From positions 42,579-106,578 of the forward strand of contig DCVE01000013.1 in assembly GCA_002328025.1 (NCBI GenBank): a stretch of DNA of 64,000 nucleotides, in the 5' to 3' direction. The DNA is from Patescibacteria group bacterium UBA2196. GTDB lineage: Bacteria > Patescibacteriota > Patescibacteriia > UBA2196. The position numbers were made by a program, and so were the translations under genes. Positions within the stretch are counted from its first letter, which is position 1; each line of letters begins with the position of its first letter. This document shows, piece after piece, positions 3,608-54,452 of the stretch. Below the pieces are notes generated by a model. The model did no database searches. It worked only from the letters and a program-made list of their open reading frames with translations, and was not told the DNA's origin.

Positions 3608-4792
3608 ATGAAAATTTGTTTAATCAATAATTTATACGATCCCTATACCAAAGGTGGGGCAGAAACAGTGGTAAAAGCTACAGCTGATGGTTTGGTTAAA
3701 AACGGACACACCGTCATGATAATTACCGCCGGTAGAAAAGATGAAACAATTGAGCAAGATATTAAAATTTACCGCATCAGGGCGTGGAATTTTTTTTCTT
3801 TTTTTGACATTGATAAAAAACCAGCTTTTCTGCGTTTAGTGTGGTGGTTTTTTAATATTTTTAATTTAAGTGTTGTTAAAAAAGTTGAAAGAATTTTACA
3901 ACAAGAACACCCAGATTTGGTGCATACGCACAACTTAAGTGGTTTGAGTTTTTTATTACCACGCAGTATTAAAAAATTAAAAATAAAACACATCCATACT
4001 TTGCATGATATTCAATTGGTTTATCCGTCTGGGCAATTAATTTATGATCAAGAAAAGAATTTTATTAACACCTTTTTTTTAAGGGTTTGGTATGAAAAAT
4101 TAGTACGTACGTTGTTTAATTCGCCACAAATAATTATTTCACCTTCGCAGTGGCTGTTAGATTTTTATCTGAAAAAGAATTTTTTTACCCACAGTCAAAA
4201 GGAATTGGTTTTAAACCCAAGCACTCAAATTTTTGATGGTCAACTTAGATTACCAAAAATTAAAGTTGATGAATTTAATTTTTTATATGTGGGCAGGGTG
4301 GAAGAATATAAAGGGATTATGTTATTAATACAAGCTTTTAAAAAAATATCCATGAGTGATAAAAAGGTTTTTTTACACATTGCTGGTACTGGACGCGAAA
4401 TGAAAAAAGCACATAGTTTGGCTGCAGAAAGCGAAAATATTTTTTTCTATGGTCAATTAGAAAGAGAACGTTTGACAGATTTGTACGGACAGGCGCAAGT
4501 TTTGATATTACCAACTTTGACCTATGAAAACGCGCCAACAGTTATTGTGGAAGCTTTTAGCCGTGGTTTGCCTGTTATTGCCTCTAATCTTGGCGGGATT
4601 ATTGAATTAGTACAAGAAGATAAGACGGGTTTTTTGTTTAAACCAGGCGACATTGAGGGTTTGGTAAAAACCATGTTGAATGTTTTAGATAATGACAACC
4701 TAAATAATTTAAGTCAGAATTGTTGGCAACGCGCTAAAAAACATAATTTAGACATGTATATAAAAAGGCTGGAAGAAATTTATTTAAGCTAA
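3608..4792 (+). CDS. glycosyltransferase family 1
   Basis: KICLINNLYDPYTKGGAE N-term; C-term E-x7-E GT1 motif (VIVEAFSRGLPVIAS). Confidence 0.75.
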   Translation: MKICLINNLYDPYTKGGAETVVKATADGLVKNGHTVMIITAGRKDETIEQDIKIYRIRAWNFFSFFDIDKKPAFLRLVWWFFNIFNLSVVKKVERILQQEHPDLVHTHNLSGLSFLLPRSIKKLKIKHIHTLHDIQLVYPSGQLIYDQEKNFINTFFLRVWYEKLVRTLFNSPQIIISPSQWLLDFYLKKNFFTHSQKELVLNPSTQIFDGQLRLPKIKVDEFNFLYVGRVEEYKGIMLLIQAFKKISMSDKKVFLHIAGTGREMKKAHSLAAESENIFFYGQLERERLTDLYGQAQVLILPTLTYENAPTVIVEAFSRGLPVIASNLGGIIELVQEDKTGFLFKPGDIEGLVKTMLNVLDNDNLNNLSQNCWQRAKKHNLDMYIKRLEEIYLS

Positions 4793-20422: not shown

Positions 20423-21649
20423 ATGCAAAATATATATTTTGATAATGCAGCCACGACGCCAGTAAATAAAAATGTTTTGGAAGTCATGTTGCCATATTTT
20501 TGTGAAATTTATGGCAACGCTTCATCCTTACACTCATTTGGTCAGGAAGCTTTAAAAGCTGTAGATGAAGCGCGCGCTAAAGTGGCAAATTTTTTAGGCT
20601 GTGAGACCAATGAAATAATTTTTACTTCGGGCGCCACAGAAGCGGATAATTTAGCCATTATGGGCGTGGTTTTTGCTAATAATTATTTAGAAAAAAAAAT
20701 ACACATTATCACCACCGAGTTTGAACATCCAGCAGTTTTGGAAACTTGTAAGTATTTGGAAAAACAGGGTGTAGAGGTGAGTTATGTAAAACCAGGTAGT
20801 GATGGGGTTATAAAAGTGGAAGATATTGAAAAAGAAATCAAAGATAATACAATTTTAATTTCGGTGATGTATGTTAATAATGAAATTGGCACCATTCAGC
20901 CAATTAAAGAAATAGGACAATTGGTGAAAAAAATAAATTCAGAGCGTATTACACGAGATCCCTCGACTTCGTCTTCGCTTCGCTCAGACTCTGCTCGGGA
21001 TGACACACTGCGTCAAATTTATTTTCACACCGATGCGGTGCAAGCAGCTTTGTATTGTGAGATGAATGTCGAAAATTTGGGTGTGGATTTGATGGCAATT
21101 TCTGGTCATAAAATTTATGGACCAAAAGGCATTGGTGTTTTGTATATAAAAAAAGGCACGCGCTTGCAAAAAATTCAACACGGTGGTCATCATGAATTTA
21201 ATAAACGCGCTGGTACTTTAAACACGCCTTTAATGGTTGGAATGGGAAAAGCTGTTGAGTTAATTCAAACTAGAGATTTAAATAAAATTAAATTTTTGCG
21301 GGATTATTTGTGGCAAGAGTTGCAAAAAAACATTGTTGATGTTAGTTTAAATGGTTCTTGGGAAGATAGAACGCCCACTAATCTAAATGTTTCTGTGCAA
21401 GGTGTGGAAGGCGAAGCTTTGTTGTTGGGTTTGGATATGGCGGGAATTGCGATTTCCACTGGCTCGGCCTGTTCTTCTGGTTCTCTTGAACCGTCACATG
21501 TATTAATGTCCATTGGTTTGTCGCACGAGGCGGCGCACGGCAGTTTAAGAATAACTTTGGGTGAAGAAAATACAAAAGAAGAGATTGATTATTTTGTGCA
21601 ACAACTTAAGCAGTTGGCGGAAAAGTTTAGACAGATGGCGCCCAAATAA
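20423..21649 (+). CDS. iscS: cysteine desulfurase (IscS/NifS class V aminotransferase)
   Basis: SGHKIYGPKGIG PLP-lysine region; SSGSLEPSHVL active-site Cys loop; ~15-codon GC-rich in-frame insertion. Confidence 0.9.
   Translation: MQNIYFDNAATTPVNKNVLEVMLPYFCEIYGNASSLHSFGQEALKAVDEARAKVANFLGCETNEIIFTSGATEADNLAIMGVVFANNYLEKKIHIITTEFEHPAVLETCKYLEKQGVEVSYVKPGSDGVIKVEDIEKEIKDNTILISVMYVNNEIGTIQPIKEIGQLVKKINSERITRDPSTSSSLRSDSARDDTLRQIYFHTDAVQAALYCEMNVENLGVDLMAISGHKIYGPKGIGVLYIKKGTRLQKIQHGGHHEFNKRAGTLNTPLMVGMGKAVELIQTRDLNKIKFLRDYLWQELQKNIVDVSLNGSWEDRTPTNLNVSVQGVEGEALLLGLDMAGIAISTGSACSSGSLEPSHVLMSIGLSHEAAHGSLRITLGEENTKEEIDYFVQQLKQLAEKFRQMAPK
20957..21001 (+). repeat. in-frame GC-rich insertion element in iscS (GATCCCTCG...CTTCGCTTCGCTCAG...CTCGGGAT)
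   Basis: inserted relative to the conserved IscS core between EIG..KKI and RQIYFHTDA; GC-rich; terminal imperfect inverted repeat. Confidence 0.5.
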
Positions 21650-26193: not shown

Positions 26194-28139
26194 AAAAAAT
26201 AAAATTTTATATTAATAATAAAGAATATACTGCTTTGGAAAATGATTCTGTTTTGGACGTGGCTTTACGAGAAGGACTAAATGTTCCGCATTTGTGTAAA
26301 CATCCGGATTTGGCCATTAAAGGTAATTGTCGTTTGTGTTTGGTACAAGTGGAAAATAAAGGTGTGGTGACAGCCTGTTCGACTGTGGTGGAAAAAGGGA
26401 TGCAAATTTTTTTAGAAACCGAAGAAGTTAAAAGCTTACGCAAGACAAATTTGGAGCTTATTTTTTCTGAACATCAGGAAAAGTGTGCCACTTGTTTGTA
26501 CCAAGATAATTGTCAAATATTAAAATATGCAGCTGAATTTGGTATAAAAATTTCGCGTTTTGAAGACAGAAAAAAACATTATTCAACCTGGCAGTTTGGT
26601 GATTCCATACGGTTTGATAGTTCTAAATGTATTGATTGTCGAAATTGTGTGGAAGTTTGCGATAAACAAGCCTGTAGTTTTTATGAAATTGCAGAAAGAG
26701 GAGTTGAAACAATCATTAAACCCAAAGGAGAAGTTGGTGGAATTACCTCCCCCCACCCCCTCCTTCTAAAGGAGGGGAGCTTAGATCTGTTAAAAAATGA
26801 TGTAGATAAATTTGATTGTACTTATTGTGGGCAATGTGTGACACATTGTCCGGTGGGAGCAATTAGCGGGGTATCGCATTGGGAGGAAGTTGAAAAATTA
26901 TTAAAAGATCGAGCTGGAAAAATTTTGGTTGTTGAAATTGCTCCGTCTATTCGTGTCTCTATTGGTGAAGAGTTTAATGAACCATACGGTAAGATTGTGA
27001 CTGGGCAATTAGCGGCTTCTATGAAAGCTTTGGGGTTTGATTATGCTTTTGATGTCAATTTGGGTGCCGATTTTACCACTTATGAGGAAGCACAAGAAGT
27101 GGTGGAAATGGTTTTGAATAATAAATCGCGTCCATTATTTACTTCGTGTTGTCCGGCGTGGGTAAAATTTGTTGAATTTTATTATCCGGAATTTATTGCC
27201 CATTTGACTAGTGCTAATTCACCGCACATGTGTTCTGGACCAATTATTAAAACCTATTTTGCCGATTATTTAAAAAAAGATCCACGCGATATTGTGGTGG
27301 TTTCAATTATGCCGTGTACCTCAAAAAAACATGAAATTAATTTAGAGACGCACACCATTGATTTGGGTTGGTGTTTGGAAAGATTGGATTTACCTAACAT
27401 TAAAAATATTTGTCCGGATAGAAAACAACTACAGGGCGTAAAAATAAAAGCCGTGGATTATGTTTTAACCACGCGTGAATACGCCCATCTTTTGCATAAA
27501 CACAAGATTGATTTATCAAAACTTAAAGCAGAAAAATTAGACAAACCTTTGGGCGTCTATTCTGGTGCCGGAGCAATTTATGGCGCGACCGGTGGAGTTA
27601 TGGAATCAGCTCTTAGAAGCGCGGATTATTTTTTCCGAGTCTGGGATGAAACCGATTCATTAAAATCAGTGGTCAAAGGAGAAAATTATAAATTGAAAAA
27701 GAAAAGATTTTCTAAATTATTACAAAGTCGCATTGAGTTTAAAGAAGTGCGTGGTCAAAATGGAATTAAAGAAGCCAGGGTAAAGGTGGGGGGGCGTAAG
27801 TTAAATGTTGCGGTCGTTAATGGTTTGGGTAATGCTAAAAAAATTTTGGATGACCTTAAAGCCGGTAAGGTAAAATATGATTATGTGGAGGTTATGGCCT
27901 GCCCGGGTGGTTGTATTGGTGGTGGTGGTCAGCCCATTCCGACTAATTCAAAAATTAGAGCCCAACGCGCCAACGCAGTTTATGAAATTGATAAAAACTT
28001 AGCCATTCGTACAGCTCACGAAAATCCAAGTCTTTTGGAGGTGTATAATAAATATTTTAAGGGTGATAAAGAAATAATTGAAAAAGTTTTACACAGTAAA
28101 TTTAAGGTTAAACAAAAAACAGGATATACGATAGTATAA
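26190..28139 (+). CDS. hydA: [FeFe] hydrogenase catalytic subunit with N-terminal 2Fe-2S and 4Fe-4S ferredoxin domains
   Basis: H-cluster motifs TSCCPAW (L1), MPCTSKKHE (L2), EVMACPGGCIGGGGQP (L3); CIDCRNCVEVC and CTYCGQCVTHCP ferredoxin motifs. Confidence 0.85.
   Translation: MKKIKFYINNKEYTALENDSVLDVALREGLNVPHLCKHPDLAIKGNCRLCLVQVENKGVVTACSTVVEKGMQIFLETEEVKSLRKTNLELIFSEHQEKCATCLYQDNCQILKYAAEFGIKISRFEDRKKHYSTWQFGDSIRFDSSKCIDCRNCVEVCDKQACSFYEIAERGVETIIKPKGEVGGITSPHPLLLKEGSLDLLKNDVDKFDCTYCGQCVTHCPVGAISGVSHWEEVEKLLKDRAGKILVVEIAPSIRVSIGEEFNEPYGKIVTGQLAASMKALGFDYAFDVNLGADFTTYEEAQEVVEMVLNNKSRPLFTSCCPAWVKFVEFYYPEFIAHLTSANSPHMCSGPIIKTYFADYLKKDPRDIVVVSIMPCTSKKHEINLETHTIDLGWCLERLDLPNIKNICPDRKQLQGVKIKAVDYVLTTREYAHLLHKHKIDLSKLKAEKLDKPLGVYSGAGAIYGATGGVMESALRSADYFFRVWDETDSLKSVVKGENYKLKKKRFSKLLQSRIEFKEVRGQNGIKEARVKVGGRKLNVAVVNGLGNAKKILDDLKAGKVKYDYVEVMACPGGCIGGGGQPIPTNSKIRAQRANAVYEIDKNLAIRTAHENPSLLEVYNKYFKGDKEIIEKVLHSKFKVKQKTGYTIV
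26757..26777 (+). repeat. perfect 9-bp palindrome CCCCTCCTT-CTA-AAGGAGGGG inside hydA (in-frame)
   Basis: seen directly; same element as at 41611-41631 in alaS. Confidence 0.6.
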
Positions 28140-28146
28140 ATTTTAA

Positions 28147-29436
28147 ATGTTTAAGATTATGGCGTACCTAGAATCAATTAAATTTGTTAAAAACAAATCC
28201 GCCGACTGGCGGAATAAAACTGTTTTAGTTCGTTGTGATTTTGATGTGCCTTTAGATGCCGACAAAATTAAAGACGACAGCCGATTAAAAGCGAGTCTTT
28301 TGACAATTAAATTTTTATTAAAAAATAAATGCCAGATAATTTTAATGGGACATTTGGGTCGGCCAAATGGAAAGGTTGTTTTGGAATTAGGTTTAAAGCC
28401 AGTCCAGCAACGTTTGGAAGAATTGTTAAAAACAAAAATTGAATTAGTTAAGTTTGGTGAAATTAGTCCTTCGGTAAAAAATAAACGAGATGAAAAAAAC
28501 AAGATTATAATGTTAGAAAATCTACGTTTTTGGTTGGGTGAAGAAAAGAATGATAAAAATTTTGCACGACAATTGGCGAGTTTGGCTGATATATATGTAA
28601 ATGAAGCGTTTGCTGTGTCGCATCGTGCGTGTGCATCGGTGGATGCCATAAAAAATTATTTACCCAGTTATGCCGGATTTAATTTAACCAAAGAAATTGA
28701 AAAATTGTCACAAGTTTTAAATCGACCACCCAGACCTTTGGTGGCTATTATTGGTGGAGCAAAAATTGAAACCAAACTACCGGTTTTGGATAAATTTTTG
28801 GCTAAAGCTGATTATTTATTGGTGGGTGGGGCGATTGCCAATAATTTTTTTAAAATTTTGAATTATGAAGTCGGCCAGTCTTTGATTGATCGAGAGTATT
28901 TACCAGCAGCTAAAAAATTGTGGCAAAAATCAAAGAGTGGTGCGCTTAATTTTGTGGTAAAGGATAAACAGTTGGTTGTTGATAACGAGCTTATTGGCAG
29001 TAAATTAGATTTAGCAACAATAAAAAATTTACGTCACAAAATAGTTTTACCAATTGACGTGGCAGTTAAAAATTTAAAAACACAAGAAAAAGAAATAAAA
29101 ACACCAAATCAAGTTAATTTAAATGATAAAATTTTGGATATTGGACCGCAAACACTGGAGTTTTATGGACGTATAATAAAAGGCGCTCGTTGTGTTGTTT
29201 GGAATGGACCTATGGGGCAGTTTGAAGCACCAGAATTTGCTTTAGGAACTTTTGGTGTGGCCGAGTTAATTATTAAGTCGCGTGCGCGCGCAGTTATGGG
29301 TGGTGGAGAGACCGAGGAAGCCTTAAAAGGTGTTTTACATAATAAAGAATTACCCAGAAGAATTTTCGTTTCCACTGGTGGCGGGGCGATGTTAGAATTT
29401 TTAGGTGGTAAGAAATTACCGGGACTAGAAAAATAA
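28147..29436 (+). CDS. pgk: phosphoglycerate kinase
   Basis: VLVRCDFDVPLD N-term; GGGA...GG C-terminal motifs. Confidence 0.9.
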   Translation: MFKIMAYLESIKFVKNKSADWRNKTVLVRCDFDVPLDADKIKDDSRLKASLLTIKFLLKNKCQIILMGHLGRPNGKVVLELGLKPVQQRLEELLKTKIELVKFGEISPSVKNKRDEKNKIIMLENLRFWLGEEKNDKNFARQLASLADIYVNEAFAVSHRACASVDAIKNYLPSYAGFNLTKEIEKLSQVLNRPPRPLVAIIGGAKIETKLPVLDKFLAKADYLLVGGAIANNFFKILNYEVGQSLIDREYLPAAKKLWQKSKSGALNFVVKDKQLVVDNELIGSKLDLATIKNLRHKIVLPIDVAVKNLKTQEKEIKTPNQVNLNDKILDIGPQTLEFYGRIIKGARCVVWNGPMGQFEAPEFALGTFGVAELIIKSRARAVMGGGETEEALKGVLHNKELPRRIFVSTGGGAMLEFLGGKKLPGLEK

Positions 29437-30764: not shown

Positions 30765-32384
30765 ATGTCGCATAAAAATTTAAAACAATTCAAACAAAGT
30801 CCGCTAGTGATGGTAATTTTAGATGGCTGGGGAATTAATAAGGCCTATAACGGGAATGCCATTACTGGGGCTAGTGTACCAGTATTTGATACACTCTGGA
30901 AAAATTATCCACACACGGAGTTGTGTGCCTCTGGCAGGTGTGTGGGCTTGCCAGCCATGCAGGATGGTAATTCAGAAGCTGGTCATTTTAATTTGGGTGC
31001 GGGTCGAATTGTTGATCAAGATACTCTGATGGTTTCTAAGGCTATTAGCAGTGGACTTTTTTTTAAAAATCCAGCCCTTAAAGCCAGTCTTAAACATTTA
31101 AAAAGAACTGGTGGTAGTTTGCATTTAATGGGATTGCTATCAGGTTGGCAATCGGCGCACGCGGATCCAGATCATCTTTTGGCATTGCTGACATTTTATC
31201 GCCAAGAAGGTGTAAAGGAAATTTTTTTACATCTTTTTACTGACGGTCGTGATTCTTATCGTTTTGGTGCGTTAGATTTTTTAAAAAAGATAAGAAAAGA
31301 AATGCGTGGTGGTGAAAAAATTGCTACAATTTGTGGTCGTTATTATGCCATGGATAGAAAAAAACAATGGGATCGTATAGAAAAGACATATCAGGCCATA
31401 GTTGCAGGTAAAGCTGTATATTATTCCAAAACAGCTGAAGAAGCCATTAAGCAGGCTTATGATCGTGGTGAGAGTGATGAATTTATTGTGCCAACCGTGA
31501 TGGTTACTGGTGGTAAATGTGATAGTAAGGGTGTGTGTACGGGTGGTAAACCAATTACGGAAATTAAAAACGGTGATGCTGTAGTTTTTTTTAACCTAAG
31601 ATCTGATCGCGCCAGAGAGCTAACTAAGACTTTTGTACAAGCGGATTTTAATAAGATGAATGTGGGGTCTTTTGTACGTACTCGGATTTTGAAAGATTTA
31701 TTGTTTGTTTCCATGACTGATTTTGGACCTGATTTAGACAGTATCTTAACTGCTTTTCCGTCGCAAAATTTAAAAAATACATTACCCATGGTTTTGGCTG
31801 ATATGCGACAACTGTATATTGCGGAAAATGAAAAATACGCCCATGTAACATATTTTTTTAATGGTGGTTATGCTGATCCACTGAATGGTGAAGATAGAAT
31901 AATGATTCCGTCGTTAGATGTATCATCATATGATTTACAACCAGAAATGTCAGCTTTGAAGATCACTGAAAAAGTTGTGAGTGATTTGAAAAATAATAAA
32001 TATGATTTTATTTTAGTTAATTTTGCCAATCCAGATATGGTGGGGCACACTGGTAATTTGGCTGCCGGTATTAAGGCTTGTGAAACAGTGGATACTTGTG
32101 TGGGTAAGATTTTAAAAATTTTGACAGAAAAAGAAGGTATTTTATTAGTGACGGCAGATCATGGTAATGTGGAAGAAATGATTGATGAAAAAACAGGCAA
32201 GATAGACACCCAGCATTCTTCTTTCCCTGTACCGTTTATTATTGCTGACAAAAGAATAAAAAATATAAAAAATTATAAGTTAAAAAATAAAGGTATTTTG
32301 GCCAATGTGGCGCCGACAATTTTAGATTTATTGGGTAAAACGAAACCCAGAGAGATGACAGAAACCTCACTTATAGTTCATTAA
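30765..32384 (+). CDS. gpmI: 2,3-bisphosphoglycerate-independent phosphoglycerate mutase (copy 1)
   Basis: MVILDGWG...GNSEAGH (catalytic Ser); ADHGN C-terminal metal site. Confidence 0.85.
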   Translation: MSHKNLKQFKQSPLVMVILDGWGINKAYNGNAITGASVPVFDTLWKNYPHTELCASGRCVGLPAMQDGNSEAGHFNLGAGRIVDQDTLMVSKAISSGLFFKNPALKASLKHLKRTGGSLHLMGLLSGWQSAHADPDHLLALLTFYRQEGVKEIFLHLFTDGRDSYRFGALDFLKKIRKEMRGGEKIATICGRYYAMDRKKQWDRIEKTYQAIVAGKAVYYSKTAEEAIKQAYDRGESDEFIVPTVMVTGGKCDSKGVCTGGKPITEIKNGDAVVFFNLRSDRARELTKTFVQADFNKMNVGSFVRTRILKDLLFVSMTDFGPDLDSILTAFPSQNLKNTLPMVLADMRQLYIAENEKYAHVTYFFNGGYADPLNGEDRIMIPSLDVSSYDLQPEMSALKITEKVVSDLKNNKYDFILVNFANPDMVGHTGNLAAGIKACETVDTCVGKILKILTEKEGILLVTADHGNVEEMIDEKTGKIDTQHSSFPVPFIIADKRIKNIKNYKLKNKGILANVAPTILDLLGKTKPREMTETSLIVH

Positions 32385-32395
32385 TTTTAATTTTT

Positions 32396-33994
32396 ATGCA
32401 TGTAGATAATAATTTAAAAGATACAAGACCCAAACCGGTGATGCTTGTAATTTTGGATGGTTGGGGTGTGGCGCCAGCTTTAATTAGTAATGCTATTACG
32501 CAGGCTAAAACACCCAATTTTAATAAATACGTGCAACAGTATTTTAGTACGACCTTGCAAGCTTCAGGTGAAGCGGTGGGTTTGCCGTTTGGTGAAATGG
32601 GTAATTCCGAGGTCGGTCATTTAAATATTGGTGCTGGCAAAATTGTATTTCAAGAATTACCACGCATAAATAAAGCTATTTTGGAAGGCAAATTTTTTGA
32701 AAATTCAATTTTAATTAAAGCTTGTTTAGCCGCTAAAAAAAATAAAAGTACTTTGCATATAGTTGGTTTAATCTCAACTGGTGGGGTGCATGCTTCAGTA
32801 GATCATCTTTATGCGTTGTTGGAGCTTGCTAAAAAACAACAGCTAAAAAATGTTTTTGTACATGCTATTTTGGATGGACGTGATATGGGTTATAATTCTG
32901 GTTTAGATTTATTGCGTCAGGTGAAAAAAAAAATGCAGGAGATTGGCGTAGGTAAAATTGCCACAGTGTGCGGTCGTTTTTGGGCCATGGATCGTGATAA
33001 CCATTGGGAACGTATAAGTGAAGCCTACCAGGCCATGGTTTATGGAATGGCAGAATTTAAGGGCGAGGATATCTTTGAAATTATACAAACAGCATATGAA
33101 GGTGGGGTTTATGATGAAGAATTAAAACCAATAGTGTGTTTGGACACAATTGCTCAACCTTTGGCCACAATTAAAGATAAAGATGCGGTGATATTTTTTA
33201 ATTTTCGTGCTGATCGTGCTAGAGAATTGACGCGTGCTTTTGTGTTGCCGGGTTTTGAAAAATTTAGGCGTGTGGAGTATCTAGCCAATTTATATTTTGT
33301 GACCATGACACAATATGAAAAACAATTACCTGTGGATGTGGCTTTTCCACCCGAGCATATTACTATGCCGCTGGCAAAAGTTTTAAGTGGACAGGGTTTG
33401 AAACAGTTACACATAGCCGAGACTGAAAAATACGCGCACGTAACATGTTTTTTTAACGGCGGCTTAGAAGAGACGTTGCCGGGTGAATATAGAATTTTAG
33501 TTCCATCACCGCGAGTGGAAAGTTATGCTGAAAAACCAGAAATGTCCGCTGGCGAAATAAAAAACAATTTAATTAAGGAAATCGCTAACAATAAGTTTGA
33601 TTTTATAGTTGTTAATTTTGCCAATCCGGATATGGTCAGTCATACAGGTGATCAAAAAGCTACTGTCAAAGCTTTGGAAAAAGTTGATAAATGTGTGGGT
33701 GAAATTGTGGAGGCGGTTTTAGCTTATGGCGGCGTGACTTTAATAACCGCAGACCATGGTAACGCCGAGTGTTTGGTGAATGATAAAACTGGTGAAATTA
33801 ATAAAGAACACTCTACCGCCCCAGTGCCTTTTTTAATTGTTGGGCAGGCCTTCAAAAGTCAATATATTGGTGAAGAAACAGTGGATTTGACATTACTAAC
33901 ACCTTCAGGGGTGTTGGCCGATATCGCGCCGACCATTTTAAAAATTATGCAAATTGAACAACCTAAAGAAATGACCGGTAGAAGTTTAATTTAG
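32396..33994 (+). CDS. gpmI: 2,3-bisphosphoglycerate-independent phosphoglycerate mutase (copy 2, tandem paralog)
   Basis: LVILDGWG...GNSEVGH; ADHGN; clearly homologous to copy 1 but divergent. Confidence 0.85.
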   Translation: MHVDNNLKDTRPKPVMLVILDGWGVAPALISNAITQAKTPNFNKYVQQYFSTTLQASGEAVGLPFGEMGNSEVGHLNIGAGKIVFQELPRINKAILEGKFFENSILIKACLAAKKNKSTLHIVGLISTGGVHASVDHLYALLELAKKQQLKNVFVHAILDGRDMGYNSGLDLLRQVKKKMQEIGVGKIATVCGRFWAMDRDNHWERISEAYQAMVYGMAEFKGEDIFEIIQTAYEGGVYDEELKPIVCLDTIAQPLATIKDKDAVIFFNFRADRARELTRAFVLPGFEKFRRVEYLANLYFVTMTQYEKQLPVDVAFPPEHITMPLAKVLSGQGLKQLHIAETEKYAHVTCFFNGGLEETLPGEYRILVPSPRVESYAEKPEMSAGEIKNNLIKEIANNKFDFIVVNFANPDMVSHTGDQKATVKALEKVDKCVGEIVEAVLAYGGVTLITADHGNAECLVNDKTGEINKEHSTAPVPFLIVGQAFKSQYIGEETVDLTLLTPSGVLADIAPTILKIMQIEQPKEMTGRSLI

Positions 33995-40765: not shown

Positions 40766-42751
40766 ATGACTTCCAAAGAATTGCGTCAAAGATATATTGA
40801 GTTTTTTAAAAAAAATGGGCATGTAGAAATTCCCAGTGCTTCTTTGATTCCGGAAAATGACCCTTCTATTCTTTTTACCACTGCTGGTATGAGTCCACTC
40901 GTGCCATTTCTTTTAGGTGAAAAACATCCGGCTGGCAATAAATTAGTTAATTCGCAAAAATGTATTAGAACAGGTGACATTGATGGTGTTGGTGATGCTT
41001 GCCACCATACTTTTTTTGAAATGTTGGGTCATTGGAGTTTGAATGATTATTTTAAAACTGAAGCCATTGAATTGACTTATAAATTTATTACTGAAGATTT
41101 AAAAATAGATCAAAAATATCTGGCCGTTTCTGTTTTTGTTGGAGATAATGATGCGCCGTTTGATGCCGAAAGTTATCAAAAATGGCAAGAGCTGGGTTTT
41201 TCTGAAAAAAGAATTACTAAATTACCCAAAAAAGATAATTGGTGGGAATTGCCTGGAAATTCTGGGCCGTGTGGGCCAGATACAGAAATGTTTTATTGGA
41301 CTGGGGACAAAAATTCTGTGCCAGAAGTTTTTGATCCGCAAAATAAAAATTGGGTAGAAATTGGCAATGATGTTTTGATGCAATATGAAAAAATTGGCGA
41401 AAACAAATATCAACCTGCCAAACAAAAAAATATTGATAATGGCACAGGTTTGGAAAGACTTTTAGCAGTTATGAACGGTCTTGATGATAATTATCAAACA
41501 GATTTATTTTTACCAATAATTGAGGAAATTGAAAAGTTAAGCGGGAAAAAATATACCCCTCTGTCCGCAGTAGCGGACTCCTCCCCTTATCAAGGGGAGG
41601 ATAAGAACATCCCCTCCTTTCTAAGGAGGGGCCTCACGACGGAGTCGGAGGGGGAGATAAAATCAATGCGTATTATCGCCGACCATTTGCGCGCGGCCAC
41701 TTTTATCATGGCTGATCCGGCTGGTATTGCGCCTTCAAACACAGATCAAGGCTATGTGGTTAGAAAGTTAATTCGTCGAGCTATTCGTCATGGTAAATTA
41801 ATTGGCATTGATCAGAATTTTTGTGTTGAAATTGCTGAAGTAGTAATTAATAATATGCAGGATATTTATGCAGAACTAGAAACTAATAAAAAATTTGTTT
41901 TAGATAATATAAATTTAGAAGAAGAAAAATTTAGAAAAACATTGCAAGACGGAGAAAAGAAATTAAATAAAATTTTTGATAAGGTTGAAATATTTGAAGA
42001 AATGGAGGAAGGTGACAAACTAGAAACTTATAATTTTGCTGATTACAGTGGTTTAGGTAAAGACTTTTTTGTCTTATCTTCCGAATATGGTTATCCTTTG
42101 GAATTAAGTTTAGAAGCTTTGGATGAAAAAAAAGAGAGATTAGGTGATGGTAAAATACCAAAAGAGGAAAAAGAAAAAATACAACGGAAATTTGATGATT
42201 TTAAAGAAAAAGTGATTAAAAGTTATAATATTGAAATGCAAAAACATCAAGATCTTTCGCGCACTGCCAGCGCTGGCAAATTTAAAGGTGGCTTAGCCAA
42301 TCAAAGCGAAATGGCTGTTAAATACCATACTGTTTCGCATTTATTATTGCAAGCTTTAAGAATGGTCTTGGGCGAACATGTTTTTCAAAAAGGTTCTAAC
42401 ATTACCGACGAAAGATTGCGTTCAGATTTTTCTCATGGGGGAAAAATGACACCAGAACAAATTGTCCAAGTTGAAAACATAGTTAATGAACAAATACAAA
42501 AAAATTTAACAGTCGAATGTAATGAAATGAGTTTAGATGAAGCTAAAAATCAAGGCGCCATGGGAGTTTTTGCCAATAAATATGGTGAGCGAGTTAAGGT
42601 ATACACAGTTGGCGATGACCATTTTTGTTTTTCTAAAGAAATTTGTGGCGGACCACATGTAAAGAATACTGGCGAATTAGGCCATTTAAAAATAATAAAA
42701 GAGGAGGCCAGTTCAGCGGGCGTCAGAAGAATTAAAGCAATTTTAGAATAA
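40766..42751 (+). CDS. alaS: alanine--tRNA ligase (short form: catalytic plus editing domains, no C-Ala domain)
   Basis: class II motifs (FTTAGM, HHTFFEMLGHWS); editing-domain HxxxH / CGGPHV; only 661 aa; ~100-nt GC-rich palindromic insertion. Confidence 0.85.
   Translation: MTSKELRQRYIEFFKKNGHVEIPSASLIPENDPSILFTTAGMSPLVPFLLGEKHPAGNKLVNSQKCIRTGDIDGVGDACHHTFFEMLGHWSLNDYFKTEAIELTYKFITEDLKIDQKYLAVSVFVGDNDAPFDAESYQKWQELGFSEKRITKLPKKDNWWELPGNSGPCGPDTEMFYWTGDKNSVPEVFDPQNKNWVEIGNDVLMQYEKIGENKYQPAKQKNIDNGTGLERLLAVMNGLDDNYQTDLFLPIIEEIEKLSGKKYTPLSAVADSSPYQGEDKNIPSFLRRGLTTESEGEIKSMRIIADHLRAATFIMADPAGIAPSNTDQGYVVRKLIRRAIRHGKLIGIDQNFCVEIAEVVINNMQDIYAELETNKKFVLDNINLEEEKFRKTLQDGEKKLNKIFDKVEIFEEMEEGDKLETYNFADYSGLGKDFFVLSSEYGYPLELSLEALDEKKERLGDGKIPKEEKEKIQRKFDDFKEKVIKSYNIEMQKHQDLSRTASAGKFKGGLANQSEMAVKYHTVSHLLLQALRMVLGEHVFQKGSNITDERLRSDFSHGGKMTPEQIVQVENIVNEQIQKNLTVECNEMSLDEAKNQGAMGVFANKYGERVKVYTVGDDHFCFSKEICGGPHVKNTGELGHLKIIKEEASSAGVRRIKAILE
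41560..41660 (+). repeat. GC-rich palindromic insertion in alaS (hairpins at 41564-41577, 41580-41600, 41611-41631)
   Basis: CCTCCCCTT-ATC-AAGGGGAGG and CCCCTCCTT-TCT-AAGGAGGGG perfect 9-bp stems; in-frame (…SAVADSSPYQGEDKNIPSFLRRGLTTESEGEIKS…). Confidence 0.55.
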
Positions 42752-45047: not shown

Positions 45048-45587
45048 ATGTCTACTGATGATAATAAAATTATAACTGATGAATTAGCTCAGCCAAAAGA
45101 TTCTATCAATGAGGTTGATTTAGAACAGGTGGCTCAAGATGGGGACGTGGCTGTTGAGGTTGTTGATGATAATGGAATTGTAGAAGAAAAAACCGTTGTT
45201 ACCAAAGGGAGAAAAAAGAAAAAGAAAGAACCTTTTTTGCGTGGTGGACGTGGTCAAATTCATATTAAATCATCTTATAACAACACCATTGTTACCATTA
45301 CTGATTTAAATGGTTCGGTTTTAGCTTGGTCTTCAGCTGGTAAGTGTGGTTTTAAGGGTCCTAAAAAATCAACACCATACGCGGCTGGTGTGATTGTTAA
45401 ATCTTTGGTTGATAAAATTAAAGCTTTGGGCATTAAAGAAACTGACGTCGAAGTTAAAGGTGTTGGTATGGGTCGTGAGGCAGCGGTGCGCGCTTTGGGC
45501 GCAAATGGCGTGCAGGTGGTGTCAGTAAAAGATGTAACACCGGTCAAACACGGTGGTGTAAGATCAAAACGTCCCAGAAGAGTTTAA
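45048..45587 (+). CDS. rpsK: 30S ribosomal protein S11 (N-terminal acidic extension)
   Basis: GQIHIKSSYNNTIVTITDLNG core. Confidence 0.9.
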   Translation: MSTDDNKIITDELAQPKDSINEVDLEQVAQDGDVAVEVVDDNGIVEEKTVVTKGRKKKKKEPFLRGGRGQIHIKSSYNNTIVTITDLNGSVLAWSSAGKCGFKGPKKSTPYAAGVIVKSLVDKIKALGIKETDVEVKGVGMGREAAVRALGANGVQVVSVKDVTPVKHGGVRSKRPRRV

Positions 45588-50212: not shown

Positions 50213-51691
50213 ATGGTGGCACAAAAAACCTTAACTCAAAATGCGACCTATTACACCGGAGCGCTAATATTACAAAAGATTTTAGCGTTTGTTTATTTTA
50301 CTTTTTTAGCGCGCGGACTTGGAGTAGAAGATTTGGGCAAATACAGTTTTGCCTTTTCTTTTACCACTATTTTTAGCGTGTTTGTGGATGTGGGTTTAAA
50401 TTCTGTTTTGACCCGCGAGATTGCCAAGGATAGAAATAAAACCCAAGAAATTTTGGCCAATGTTTTGGGGGTAAAAACAGTTTTAAGTTTTTTCACCTAT
50501 GCATTGATTGTGGCTTTGGTAAATTTTATGGGCTATCCAGAGTTGACCAAAAATTTGGTATATTTGACCGGCTTAATTATGTTGTTGGATACTTTTTCTG
50601 CCACTTTTTGGGGTGTGCTGCGAGGTAATCAAAATTTAAAATATGAAAGCATTGGCATAGTTTTATTTCAATTTTTGGTGGTGGGCATGGGCATGGTTTT
50701 GTTGGCGGCTGGCGTCGGGGTGGTGCCACAGGTGTTGGCAGTCGTGGTTGGCAGTTCATTTTTATTTGTTTATTCTTTTTTAGAAATGCGTCGTCGCCTA
50801 CATGTGCCGTTTAAAATTAGTTGGAATAAAAAATTGGTAAAAGAATTGTTAAAAATTTCTATACCTTTTGCTTTAACAGGAATTTTAGCGCGTCTTAATA
50901 CGCAGGTGGACACCATTTTTTTATCAAAGGTTGGTTGTGCCACGCAAGCTGTGTGTGATTCAAATGTGGGTATTTATTCGGTGGCGACCAAAATTACTTT
51001 AGCTTTGCATTTTATTCCTTTGGCCTTTGTAGCCGCGCTTTTTCCGGCTTTTTCTGAATATTATGCCACTAATAAAGAAAAATTGGCGCGCACTTTTGAA
51101 AAATCAATGCGTTATTTGATGTTGGTTAGTATCCCCATGGCGTTGGGAATTTTGGTCTTGGCGTCAGATTTCGTGCCAAAAGTTTTTGGAGTCGAATATG
51201 CGGCCGCGGTGTTACCTTTGCAAATTTTAATGGTTTCTTTGGTTTTTTTATTTTTAACTTTTCCAGTTGGTTCACTGTTAAACGCAACTTCCAGGCAAAT
51301 TGATAATACCAAGCAAATTGCCATTGCCGCGCTTATTAATTTTTTATTAAATTTATTTTTAGTTCCCAAGATGACCTATGTTGGCGGTGCTTTGTCTTCA
51401 TTAATTAGCACTTTGGTCTTATTTTATCTGGGTATAAGGATTTCTAATCAGGTTTTGAATTATGATAAAAAATATTTATTAAAAAGTTTTTTTCTGTGTT
51501 TGGTGGCGGGTCTGCTGATGAGCTTGGTTTTGTGGCTGTTGCTGTTTAAGATTAATTTTATAATTTTAATTGCTTTGGGCGTTGTAATTTATTTTGTTTT
51601 ATTATTATTTTTTAAGGTTTTGACAAAAGACGATATTAATGAAATACTGCTGTCTTTGAAACTAAAAAAGTCATTTTATGACAAAGGATAA
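50213..51691 (+). CDS. polysaccharide/O-antigen flippase (Wzx, MOP superfamily)
   Basis: 12-14 TM helices; polysaccharide biosynthesis protein pattern; preceded by TTGTAA-17-TGcTATAAT promoter. Confidence 0.8.
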   Translation: MVAQKTLTQNATYYTGALILQKILAFVYFTFLARGLGVEDLGKYSFAFSFTTIFSVFVDVGLNSVLTREIAKDRNKTQEILANVLGVKTVLSFFTYALIVALVNFMGYPELTKNLVYLTGLIMLLDTFSATFWGVLRGNQNLKYESIGIVLFQFLVVGMGMVLLAAGVGVVPQVLAVVVGSSFLFVYSFLEMRRRLHVPFKISWNKKLVKELLKISIPFALTGILARLNTQVDTIFLSKVGCATQAVCDSNVGIYSVATKITLALHFIPLAFVAALFPAFSEYYATNKEKLARTFEKSMRYLMLVSIPMALGILVLASDFVPKVFGVEYAAAVLPLQILMVSLVFLFLTFPVGSLLNATSRQIDNTKQIAIAALINFLLNLFLVPKMTYVGGALSSLISTLVLFYLGIRISNQVLNYDKKYLLKSFFLCLVAGLLMSLVLWLLLFKINFIILIALGVVIYFVLLLFFKVLTKDDINEILLSLKLKKSFYDKG

Positions 51692-52748
51692 AACACTATT
51701 AGTCACTTTGGATTTTCCTCCGCTTCTCGGCGGTGTAGCAAATTATTATTTTGAACGGGTGAAAGCAATGTCAAAAGATGAGATTGTGGTTTTGGTTGAT
51801 GAATTAAAAACTGAGGGTTTAAAACTGGAAATGGGAGCAAAAATTTATCGTTTTAAGTTTTTGCAGCGATTTATTTGGCCGCATTGGTTATTTTTAATTT
51901 GGTATATTTATAAAATAGTAAAAAAAGAAAAAATAAATAAAATTTGGGTCGGGCAAGTTTTGCCAGTTGGCACGGCCGTGTGGGTGGTGAGTAAAATTTT
52001 AAATATTCCATATTTTGTTTCATGTCATGGCAATGACCTACTTAGGGCTAAAAAAAATAAGCGCAAATTTAAATTAGCCAAGAAAATTTTAGCTGACGCT
52101 GAATTTGTGGAAGCCAATACGGAATTTACTAAAAATATTTTAGTTAACGATTTTGAAATTTCAGCAGAAAGAATAAAAATTGTTTACCCAATTAATACTT
52201 TAAAAAAGGCAATGGTGGATTTACAAAAAGTGGGGGAGTTAAAGGAAAAATATAATTTAAAAGATAAAAAAGTTTTATTAACTGTGGGGCGTCTGGTGGA
52301 ATCCAAAGGCATTGATTTAGTTTTGCAAGCTTTGCCAAAAGTTTGGCAAAGTGTGCCAAACCTGGTTTATTTAGTTATTGGCGATGGACCAGATAAAAAC
52401 AGATTAATGCAAATTGTTAATAAATTGCCGCAGAATATAAAACCAAATATTGTCTTTGTTGGTGCAGTACCATATCTTGAACTGCCAAATTATTATGCCT
52501 TGGCGAGTGCCTTTATTTTAACTCCGCGTTCCACCCCTCTCATTTATAAGGAGAGGAAGGGAGAGGTAAACACAGATACAGAGAGTTTTGGGGTGGTTTA
52601 TTTGGAGGCTCAAGAGTTTGGTTTGCCAGTTGTGGCTGGCAAGGTGGGTGGAGCTTTAGAAATTGCTAAAAATTATAACCAAATGCATTTAATTGATTCT
52701 GAAAATAATAATGAAATTATTGAGAAGATAATAGAAATAATAAAATAA
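51678..52748 (+). CDS. glycosyltransferase family 1 with in-frame palindromic insertion before the E-x7-E motif
   Basis: ESFGVVYLEAQEFGLPVVAG GT1 motif; insertion RSTPLIYKERKGEVNTDT encoded by 52534-52580. Confidence 0.75.
   Translation: MTKDKTLLVTLDFPPLLGGVANYYFERVKAMSKDEIVVLVDELKTEGLKLEMGAKIYRFKFLQRFIWPHWLFLIWYIYKIVKKEKINKIWVGQVLPVGTAVWVVSKILNIPYFVSCHGNDLLRAKKNKRKFKLAKKILADAEFVEANTEFTKNILVNDFEISAERIKIVYPINTLKKAMVDLQKVGELKEKYNLKDKKVLLTVGRLVESKGIDLVLQALPKVWQSVPNLVYLVIGDGPDKNRLMQIVNKLPQNIKPNIVFVGAVPYLELPNYYALASAFILTPRSTPLIYKERKGEVNTDTESFGVVYLEAQEFGLPVVAGKVGGALEIAKNYNQMHLIDSENNNEIIEKIIEIIK
52534..52580 (+). repeat. GC-rich palindromic in-frame insertion in GT1 gene (CCCTCTC-loop-GAGAGG...)
   Basis: CCTCTC/GAGAGG inverted repeat with 9-nt loop; GC spike inside an AT-rich gene. 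Confidence 0.4.
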
Positions 52749-53848: not shown

Positions 53849-53854
53849 AATTAT

Positions 53855-54224
53855 GCAAGGTCTTGGAGCGACCTTTGCACATTGCAGGGCTTTTTAACAC
53901 AAAACGGGAGGATGGGAATGCAACTCAAATTTGAAATATGAGTTACATAGAGGTCGACTGCCTGAAATAAAGTTTCAAGGACGCGGGAAACTGCGATCCG
54001 AAACTTCAGGTGGTTTTTCCTCACCCGGCGACATTTCAGGGGATTTTTAATCCCCTCCCTCACACCCATACCACACCGAAAAGTCTCATTGAGACGCTAA
54101 GCTCACGGCACTATTGAGAGCACAGCGTTTTCATACATACGGACCTAGTAAGTTTCTGTGGGTCGGGTTGATTTTAAGGGCTAGAACTCTGCTGTACCTC
54201 GGTACACAGTTCAGCCCTTTTTTT
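53855..54224 (+). ncRNA. candidate structured non-coding RNA of unknown class (~370 nt)
   Basis: bracketed by a consensus promoter and a strong terminator (GGGCT.GAACT...AGTTC.AGCCC plus T7 at 54178-54224); GC ~48% in a 30% GC genome; only tiny ORFs; 5' hairpin AAGGTC/GACCTT; internal GGGGATTTTTAATCCCC hairpin. Confidence 0.35.
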
Positions 54225-54325
54225 ATTTGCTTTATATTGTTTTTTCTTTTAAAATTAGAGTGTATTTTGGGTTATTTGTTGGTTGGCCAGCGATATATAT
54301 TTAATAGTTAATTATTCATCTTTTT

Positions 54326-54397
54326 GCCCCCATCGTCTAATGGTTAGGACACATGGTTCTCAGCCATGTAATTGGGGTTCGATTCCCCATAGGGGTA
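54326..54397 (+). tRNA. tRNA-Glu (anticodon CUC)
   Basis: cloverleaf by eye: D-stem GTCT/GGAC; anticodon stem CATGG/CCATG with loop TTCTCAG; T-arm TGGGG-TTCGATT-CCCCA; acceptor has one C-A mismatch and a G-U pair; CCA not encoded. Confidence 0.65.
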
Positions 54398-54452
54398 AGA
54401 AGATGAATAGTTAATTGGGTGGTGTGAATTTTATTATCCGTGAATATTATTT

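Follow-up and report, generated by a model that had tools for sequence, protein, structure and literature searches.

A probable triplex-type dispersed repeat, translated within a glycosyltransferase loop of a Patescibacteria group bacterium

The stretch of DNA analyzed here (the window: 64,000 nucleotides of contig DCVE01000013.1 from Patescibacteria group bacterium UBA2196, a member of the Candidate Phyla Radiation, CPR) carries a 33-nt element inside a gene for a PimB'-like glycosyltransferase (GT), where it is read through in frame just ahead of the catalytic motif. What is this element? Most probably, it is a dispersed repeat of the class II purine-motif intrastrand triplex type, selfish or neutral, and tolerated in a loop of the enzyme. 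Such a sequence may fold transiently as a triplex or hairpin in single-stranded DNA. Elements of this kind are already known; their in-frame residence in genes and their recurrence in one loop of CPR proteins appear to be undescribed.

Class II motifs are defined by a stem of 6-15 nt with no more than one mismatch where it exceeds 7 nt, by loops of 1-6 nt, and by a third arm that is antiparallel to the purine arm and forms the triads G*G:C, A*A:T or T*A:T (PMC4666352). The GT copy consists of a pyrimidine (Y) arm, a purine (R) arm and a mirror image of the latter, the order required of a single DNA strand if it is to fold as a purine-motif triple helix. The arms CCTCTCATT and AAGGAGAGG make up a 9-nt inverted repeat with one mismatch and a 3-nt loop, while GGAGAGGTA is AAGGAGAGG read backwards with T instead of A at one position; eight of the nine triads are canonical, and both loops are 3 nt long. 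A palindromic core had been noticed here when the letters were first read without any database search (the sequence-only reading, whose quotation of positions 52530-52585 is correct). The inverted repeat is real, but the unit has three parts, and the repeated purine run aagggagagg, although quoted in that reading, had not been recognized as a third arm.

The window was scanned by the published intrastrand triplex-forming (ITxF) rules, with stems of 6-12 nt, at most one mismatch at stems of 8 nt or more and short loops, and with G or C in at least half of the triads. Exactly two class II motifs were detected in the 64 kb, one in the GT gene (delimited by the scanner as 52536-52567, with 8 triads and loops of 5 and 3 nt) and one in hydA, against a mean of 0.017 in 60 shuffled sequences, none of which held two. 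The window has a single match to the core CCTCTC-N3-15-GAGAGG, and none of 100 shuffles has any. Homopyrimidine/homopurine hairpins were found at five loci (hydA, alaS twice, the GT gene and one in an intergenic RNA-like region), where shuffled sequences give about 0.31 matches in total. By its Y and R arms, its mirror third arm and its excess over shuffled sequence, the GT copy falls within class II. Whether it is also GC-rich, as had been claimed, depends on the yardstick: its GC content of 0.48 exceeds the window mean of 0.354, but the neighboring DNA of the catalytic motif is likewise at 0.47-0.48.

Is the element an insertion? In a DNA alignment with three empty-site orthologs (L006, L138 and L012), the flanks TTTATTTTAACTCCGCG and GATACAGAAAGTTTTGG are conserved and enclose 46 nt in the window versus 16 nt in the empty sites, so that 30 nt, or 10 codons, were gained net. 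The sequence-only reading had correctly proposed an intragenic insertion just 5' of the E-x7-E motif (the element is in frame, five codons 5' of it), although its estimate of about 15-20 residues was too high. It had also named a paralog or ortholog alignment without an insertion as the outcome that would speak against it; the insertion is present. The loop from (A)FILTP to LEA spans 34 residues in the window protein and 23-24 in 35 of the 52 aligned orthologs, the better basis for comparison, and the four GT paralogs of the window are short by 13-16 residues at the insertion point, in line with the earlier statement that they have no equivalent segment. The two closest orthologs, P0002 and P0003, are syntenic with the window and have an empty site. 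P0002, the closest of all, reads TPRKNSFGDTESFG at this position and, as in the window, has a Polysacc_synt gene upstream and a 63-aa open reading frame (ORF) and a GT2 gene downstream.

A metagenome scan for further relatives of the GT gene returned mostly distant homologs and added one close relative, L138. Almost all of the 80 further homologs, mostly 30-40% identical, have the short loop, which makes the short state the ancestral one. Around these metagenome homologs, class II motifs are rare (4 in 588 kb).

The host ORF matches the Pfam domains Glycos_transf_1 (E 4.9e-31) and Glyco_transf_4, and the best solved relative of its product is the Corynebacterium glutamicum mannosyltransferase PimB' (3OKA/3OKC, E 2e-21). 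With these matches, a structural model, and E302 and E310 invariant across the alignment of 52 orthologs, the protein is a two-domain GT-B enzyme of the retaining type with a C-terminal E-x7-E motif. Group 1 of Pfam, which the sequence-only reading called GT1, is a family that we take to be CAZy family GT4. An ortholog search yielded about 39 close relatives (52-77% identity) from Patescibacteria/CPR and many more at about 40%. The translation around the element reads ...FILTPRSTPLIYKERKGEVNTDTESFGVVYLEAQEFG..., and the identical protein is encoded on contigs from five independently assembled samples; the element is therefore not an assembly artifact.

How does the insert affect the protein? 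AlphaFold, given the 52-sequence alignment, returned a confident model with a mean predicted local distance difference test (pLDDT) score of 92 and a predicted template modeling (pTM) score of 0.87, and only residues 288-298, the insert, fall below a pLDDT of 50. They lie between strand 278-281 and helix 306-313, the helix carrying E-x7-E; the corresponding loop in PimB' has 8 residues. The roughly 10 inserted residues, rich in K, E, R and G, are thus modeled as disordered, and the effect on catalysis, like the consequence for the glycosyltransferase as a whole, is most likely little. The features of the GT gene and of the related copies are listed in Table 1.

Table 1. Features of the glycosyltransferase gene, its element and the related copies (window coordinates)
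Feature	Position	Strand	Description	Evidence
Host gene	51678..52748	+	PimB'-like GT4 glycosyltransferase, 356 aa	ORF, Pfam, nearest structure
Expanded loop	52530..52574	+	codons S285-T299; 15 codons versus 5 (K-N-x-F-G) in empty-site orthologs	loop lengths, DNA alignment, AlphaFold
Element	52536-52568	+	33 nt, CCTCTCATT-TAT-AAGGAGAGG-AAG-GGAGAGGTA	sequence
Y arm	52536..52544	+	CCTCTCATT	pairs with 52548-52556, one mismatch at A52542
Loop 1	52545..52547	+	TAT	sequence, inverted-repeat search
R arm	52548..52556	+	AAGGAGAGG, Watson-Crick partner of Y arm	inverted repeat, scanner
Loop 2	52557..52559	+	AAG	sequence, scanner
Third arm	52560..52568	+	GGAGAGGTA, mirror of R arm, reverse-Hoogsteen position	scanner, triad table
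E-x7-E motif	52581..52607	+	catalytic motif, E302 to E310 (ESFGVVYLE)	translation
hydA copy	26744..26778	-	TCCCCTCCTT-TAG-AAGGAGGGGG-TG-GGGGGAGGTA	scanner; 10 triads, 1 mismatch
alaS composite insert	41556..41660	+	about 105 nt, in ORF 40766..42751	hairpin search, folding

The same loop has received similar elements elsewhere in the CPR. Class II motifs of 9-11 triads occupy it in L007, L009, L010 and L011, all in one frame and on the coding strand, and L135 has a decayed-looking copy there. The frame common to all lineages is forced rather than informative because the other two frames of the GT-copy strand meet TAA within or just after the element. Arm sequences vary by lineage (CCTCTC, CTCCCC, CCTCCC, CCCACCC), and within each copy all three arms match. 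With the third arm taken as a mirror, ten copies together give 87 canonical triads out of 97; taken as a direct repeat, it gives 47 of 97. When third arms were swapped among the copies, the canonical fraction averaged 0.73 and reached at most 0.863 in 2000 permutations; the observed value is 0.897.

Copies also resemble each other within genomes. Both L007 and L011 hold two strong class II copies within 9-13 kb. The two of L007 are in the same gene and have the loop ATTTTCAA and the tail GGGGGTTAATAAA in common, while those of L011, one in the gene and one in the downstream spacer, have TTAATAAGG and GGTCGTTT in common. The intergenic copy of L011 (2735-2769), CCCTCTCC-TTAATAA-GGAGAGGG-TA-GGGAGAGG, is nearly identical to the GT element of the window. 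A sister-lineage copy (L006 and L138), which lies on the minus strand at another site of the gene, shares TT-TAx-AAGGAG and AGGTAA with the GT and hydA copies. Overall, copies within a genome resemble each other more than they resemble same-site copies across genomes. The copies include intergenic ones, occur in both orientations and encode differing peptides; the conserved object is therefore the DNA and not the peptide.

How often has this loop been entered? In a bootstrapped neighbor-joining tree of 323 columns, from which the insert was excluded, the window protein and the empty-site P0002 form a pair in 200 of 200 replicates. A clade of these two with P0003, P0005 and P0007 is recovered in 179 of 200, and the window alone bears this element within it. 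Insert-bearing P0012 is nested in a 200/200 clade whose other members, with short loops, read KTGI, and P0031 in a short-loop clade with 200/200 support. The insert bearers come out as monophyletic in 0 of 200 replicates, and the offset of the element within the loop varies by 0-2 codons among lineages. The economical reading of these sequences is at least four independent gains, though L007 and L009 may share one.

The gene is also host to other inserts. P0002 (L006, 3001-4245) is without the window insert but has three others, PFVIPAKAGIQVKKKWIPDQVGDDKKE, FNRRDPSTSASPCSAYAQDDKKRPLS and IKLPPLAPPYKGGDGEAPHFRSNVLVENGTGGAG. A class II triplex motif lies in the last of these (minus strand, 3878-3911); the other two look like members of other small repeat families and recur in several orthologs. 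A second, unrelated insert type is present in the same GT loop of five orthologs (P0004, P0005, P0013, P0030 and P0033; L133 2178-2288 and L134 10964-11071); its peptides end in GFKPV[PQ] or LQPVR, and its DNA contains a GGTTTTAAACC-type palindrome. Judged from these inserts, a few loops of this gene family collect small repeats time and again.

The sequence-only reading had placed the GT copy in one family with insertions in hydA and alaS, possibly as a degenerate member. For hydA, the kinship holds, as it contains the only other class II motif of the window; the two copies have a CCCCTC start, a TT-TAx-AAGGAG center and an AGGTAA tail in common. The hydA copy encodes TSPHPLLLKEGS and the GT copy PLIYKERKGEV, and the hydA protein exceeds HydA1 (8a6t) by about 21 residues in the stretch between its ferredoxin-like cluster motifs. 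The charge of degeneracy relative to hydA is fair in one respect, since an uncompensated change of C to A in the Y arm produces the stem mismatch. In two others it fails: a change from C:G*G to T:A*A is compensated in all three arms, and the intergenic element of L011, in another CPR genome, is a perfect copy with the GGAGAGG arm variant.

The relation to alaS is looser. The alaS insert holds two head-to-head homopyrimidine/homopurine hairpins, TCCTCCCCT-TATCA-AGGGGAGGA and CCCCTCCTT-TCT-AAGGAGGGG, GTCCGC-AGTA-GCGGAC as a further hairpin, and, at a distance, runs of purines or pyrimidines. It is GC-rich and folds as DNA with -33 kcal/mol (z score -6.8), and the AlaRS has about 28 extra residues compared with AlaRS 1riq. 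Because its third arms are distant or degenerate and it fails the strict triplex scan, we regard this composite as related to, rather than a clean member of, the triplex-type repeats. The purine arms of all window-clade copies (26748-26776, 41611-41631 and 52548-52556) open with the Shine-Dalgarno (SD)-like AAGGAG within coding regions, and the pyrimidine arm of these copies is anti-SD-like. A likeness to the 3' end of 16S rRNA and the spacer after it may be seen in CCTCCTTTCTAAGGAGG of the alaS copy; this likeness was dropped, as it is presumably a coincidence of SD/anti-SD-like palindromes.

How does the element compare with known repeats? Class II intrastrand triplex motifs, known in Escherichia coli and many other bacteria, were described first as BoxC and then as PIT (Hoyne et al. 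2000), and 5246 genomes were surveyed by Holder et al. 2015 (PMC4666352). In Escherichia coli, the TM-ECO motif reads CCCTCNCCC-N3-6-GGGNGAGGG-N3-GGGNGAGGG; in vitro it folds as a stable triplex, which circular dichroism and nuclear magnetic resonance show for TM-ECO only. It has no promoter or terminator activity and no link to transposons, marks variable loci and is, in E. coli K-12, 'always located intergenically' (PMC4666352). Our element shares with BoxC, PIT and TM-ECO the order of the arms, the 3-nt second loop and the triad rules, as well as a length of about 33-37 nt, multiple copies, the lack of an associated transposase and local presence/absence variation. In contrast to TM-ECO, whose consensus it does not match, the GT copy is intragenic and translated. 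Its arms, CCTCTC(ATT), (AAG)GAGAGG and GGAGAGG(TA), have shorter G/C portions than the 9-nt G/C arms of TM-ECO, with A/T triads extending them, and its loops are rich in A/T, which suits a genome of 35% GC.

Hairpins of this type are widespread. A scan of a genome collection for CCCCTCC-N7-GGAGGGG returned at least 120 loci in many phyla, a count that shows spread and not enrichment. The loci were reused to compare mirror with direct third arms: among the 120 listed, a flanking third arm is mirror-only at 48 and direct-only at 2. The third-arm base opposite an A of the R arm is T in 84 cases, A in 74, C in 6 and G in 4, a preference for T and A that fits the rules of purine-motif triplexes.

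Rickettsia palindromic elements (RPEs; Ogata et al. 2000) are summarized as elements of about 150 bp that lie in frame in genes and encode a conserved peptide (PMC10969869). Like RPEs, our element is a palindromic repeat of selfish type that sits in frame in unrelated housekeeping genes of a reduced genome and is translated at a site that the fold tolerates. Unlike RPEs, with their 100-150 bp or so and family-specific peptides, it is 33 nt long, has a third mirror arm and encodes a peptide that varies with orientation and site; in sequence it is unrelated to RPEs. REP and REPIN sequences, mobilized by the IS200/IS605-like RAYT transposases, are similar in being dispersed, G/C-stemmed hairpin repeats of 20-40 nt without target-site duplication; the GT copy differs in its intragenic position and in the third arm, which REPs do not have. 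One criterion for REPs is a GTAG or CGTC tetranucleotide at one end of the palindrome (PMC3733652), and neither is present in the GT element and its 12-nt flanks. Membership among REP/RAYT elements was rejected for want of such a head and, among the window ORFs of at least 120 aa, of a transposase. Membership among MITEs (miniature transposable elements bounded by inverted repeats) was likewise rejected, as there is no flanking direct repeat at the 10 copies and the ends of the element are not inverted repeats of each other. Rfam gave no match at the GT element, and our literature search found no paper joining CPR/Patescibacteria with REP, MITE or RPE-type repeats. The small dispersed repeats (SDR) of heterocyst-forming cyanobacteria, which Elhai et al. 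are said to have reported in 2008, are reportedly about 21-27 nt long, mobile-looking and able to sit inside genes; the likeness is one of description only.

Several points weigh against the assignment of the GT element to the selfish or neutral triplex-type repeats. It is the weakest copy of the set, with short arms and one mismatch, and its hairpin, at -5.2 kcal/mol as DNA (z = -0.9), is no stabler than shuffled sequence in ViennaRNA folding, which covers the hairpin only and not the triplex. The motif count for the source genome is that of one 64-kb window and does not give the genome-wide copy number, and the tree is not a maximum-likelihood one. All five same-loop copies have one orientation and frame, which protein-level selection explains as well as neutrality does. 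Among the window ORFs of at least 120 aa, there is no transposase or RAYT domain. No target-site duplication or shared target sequence was seen at any of the 10 copies, and transposition is therefore not demonstrated. Although BoxC, PIT and TM motifs, described so far as intergenic, have been known for more than 20 years, we know of no mobilizing enzyme, spreading route or function established for them. Lastly, TM-ECO shows no in vivo footprint in E. coli (PMC4666352); by analogy, the fold may never form in cells.

Could the loop instead be adaptive? A K/R/G/E-rich peptide close to E-x7-E might improve the enzyme, for example in binding the membrane or the acceptor, the DNA symmetry being then its vehicle or a by-product of co-option. 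PimB', the nearest solved homolog, is a phosphatidylinositol mannoside mannosyltransferase; it acts on a lipid of the membrane, a setting in which basic loops could be of use. Moreover, five lineages carry similar peptides in this loop (PLIYKERKGE, LPIFKGEIKRG, LPLSKGEVRRG, PTLTKGGIKGG, PPINKGRKKEG) in the same orientation and frame. However, the element is also intergenic in L011, reversed in hydA and placed at further sites of the GT gene, with different peptides. The stop codons in the other two frames account for the shared frame, and K, G, E and R are merely what AAG, GGN, GAG and AGG encode. The closest relatives manage without the residues, which are predicted to be disordered. We consider an adaptive loop improbable, and the element is probably selfish or neutral. 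A single ancient insertion in the ancestor of the GT clade, inherited by the window and followed elsewhere by many precise losses, is quite improbable. The similarity and common codon offset of the L007 and L009 elements allow shared descent for some copies, and repeats that form hairpins or triplexes are frequently deleted (Holder et al., PMC4666352). Nevertheless, the bearers are never monophyletic in the 200 bootstraps, each being nested among well-supported short-loop clades; distant homologs are almost all short-loop; and copies are closer to their genome-mates than to same-site copies elsewhere, with offsets that differ by up to 2 codons.

Nor does it seem credible, save as a very slight chance, that this is an ordinary indel of a variable loop with a fortuitous 6-9 bp inverted repeat. 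The hairpin is indeed weak, and the loop does vary within the family, other orthologs holding the unrelated GFKPVQ-type inserts. Chance is nonetheless hard to reconcile with a three-arm motif seen twice where 0.017 are expected per window, with a core pattern absent from all shuffles, with hairpins at five loci where a fraction of one match is expected, and with the near-identical element of L011. We give as little credence to an element acting in RNA, either as a hairpin for mRNA pausing or stability that masks the SD-like AAGGAG or as a G-quadruplex. The R arms of the window clade do begin with AAGGAG, which the Y arm could mask, and GC-rich relatives in other phyla have four G-tracts. Yet copies occur in both orientations relative to transcription, and RNA is reported not to form purine-motif triplexes (PMC4666352). 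An RNA hairpin regulator was rejected, the fold being no stabler than shuffled sequence, and so was a G-quadruplex for the GT copy, which has no G3 tract and cannot form a canonical one.

The triplex-type repeat therefore remains our preferred reading, and it suggests the following course of events. A small dispersed repeat would have entered a surface loop of the PimB'-like GT4 gene in the window lineage after its split from the closest sampled relative. It could survive there as the 30 nt gained net are divisible by three, the frame used is the one open frame, and the loop tolerates the residues. Its translation would add the 10 or so disordered K/E/R/G-rich residues five codons before E-x7-E. 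The repeat presumably spread as DNA, either mobilized in trans or through copying linked to replication or repair that makes use of the single-strand fold. A bolder version, which strikes us as rather doubtful, holds that triplex-type mini-repeats of this CPR clade are actively mobile and directed to particular DNA sites, hitting the same loop repeatedly. If true, directed mobility would provide ultrasmall genomes with a regular source of new protein-loop sequence and offer a natural system for finding how elements of the BoxC/PIT/TM type spread.

Why does a repeat of this kind matter? The architecture of triplex repeats would here be found, translated, inside essential-type genes (hydA, alaS and the GT4 transferase) of a CPR genome of 35% GC. 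The filled and empty sites form clean, datable pairs for the study of how such elements insert. Part of the variation in loop length among CPR proteins would then stem from repeat DNA rather than from protein-level selection, which affects annotation, alignment and structure prediction. Peptides resembling PLxxKGExxG in metagenomic proteins should accordingly be treated with caution, as probable footprints of repeats.

Other features of the window deserve mention. About 380 nt at 53850-54230 (plus strand), between the GT2 gene and a tRNA-Glu(CTC) gene (54325-54398), are GC-richer than their surroundings. As RNA, this region folds much more stably than its shuffles (-128.8 kcal/mol, z = -5.6), and at its end lies a terminator-like hairpin with a T-run. 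Rfam yields nothing here even at E<=1, and the region is not called as a tmRNA by ARAGORN; it may be an undescribed structured RNA. The Pfam matches of the IscS-like ORF at 20423..21649 (Aminotran_5) and of the PGK ORF at 28147..29436 (PGK) each come in two stretches, and both ORFs may hold inserts. Two tandem full-length paralogs of 2,3-bisphosphoglycerate-independent phosphoglycerate mutase (30765..32384 and 32396..33994) adjoin PGK and enolase. Ribosomal protein S11 (45048..45587) is 179 aa long with its Pfam domain at residues 69-178, which implies an N-terminal extension of about 68 residues.

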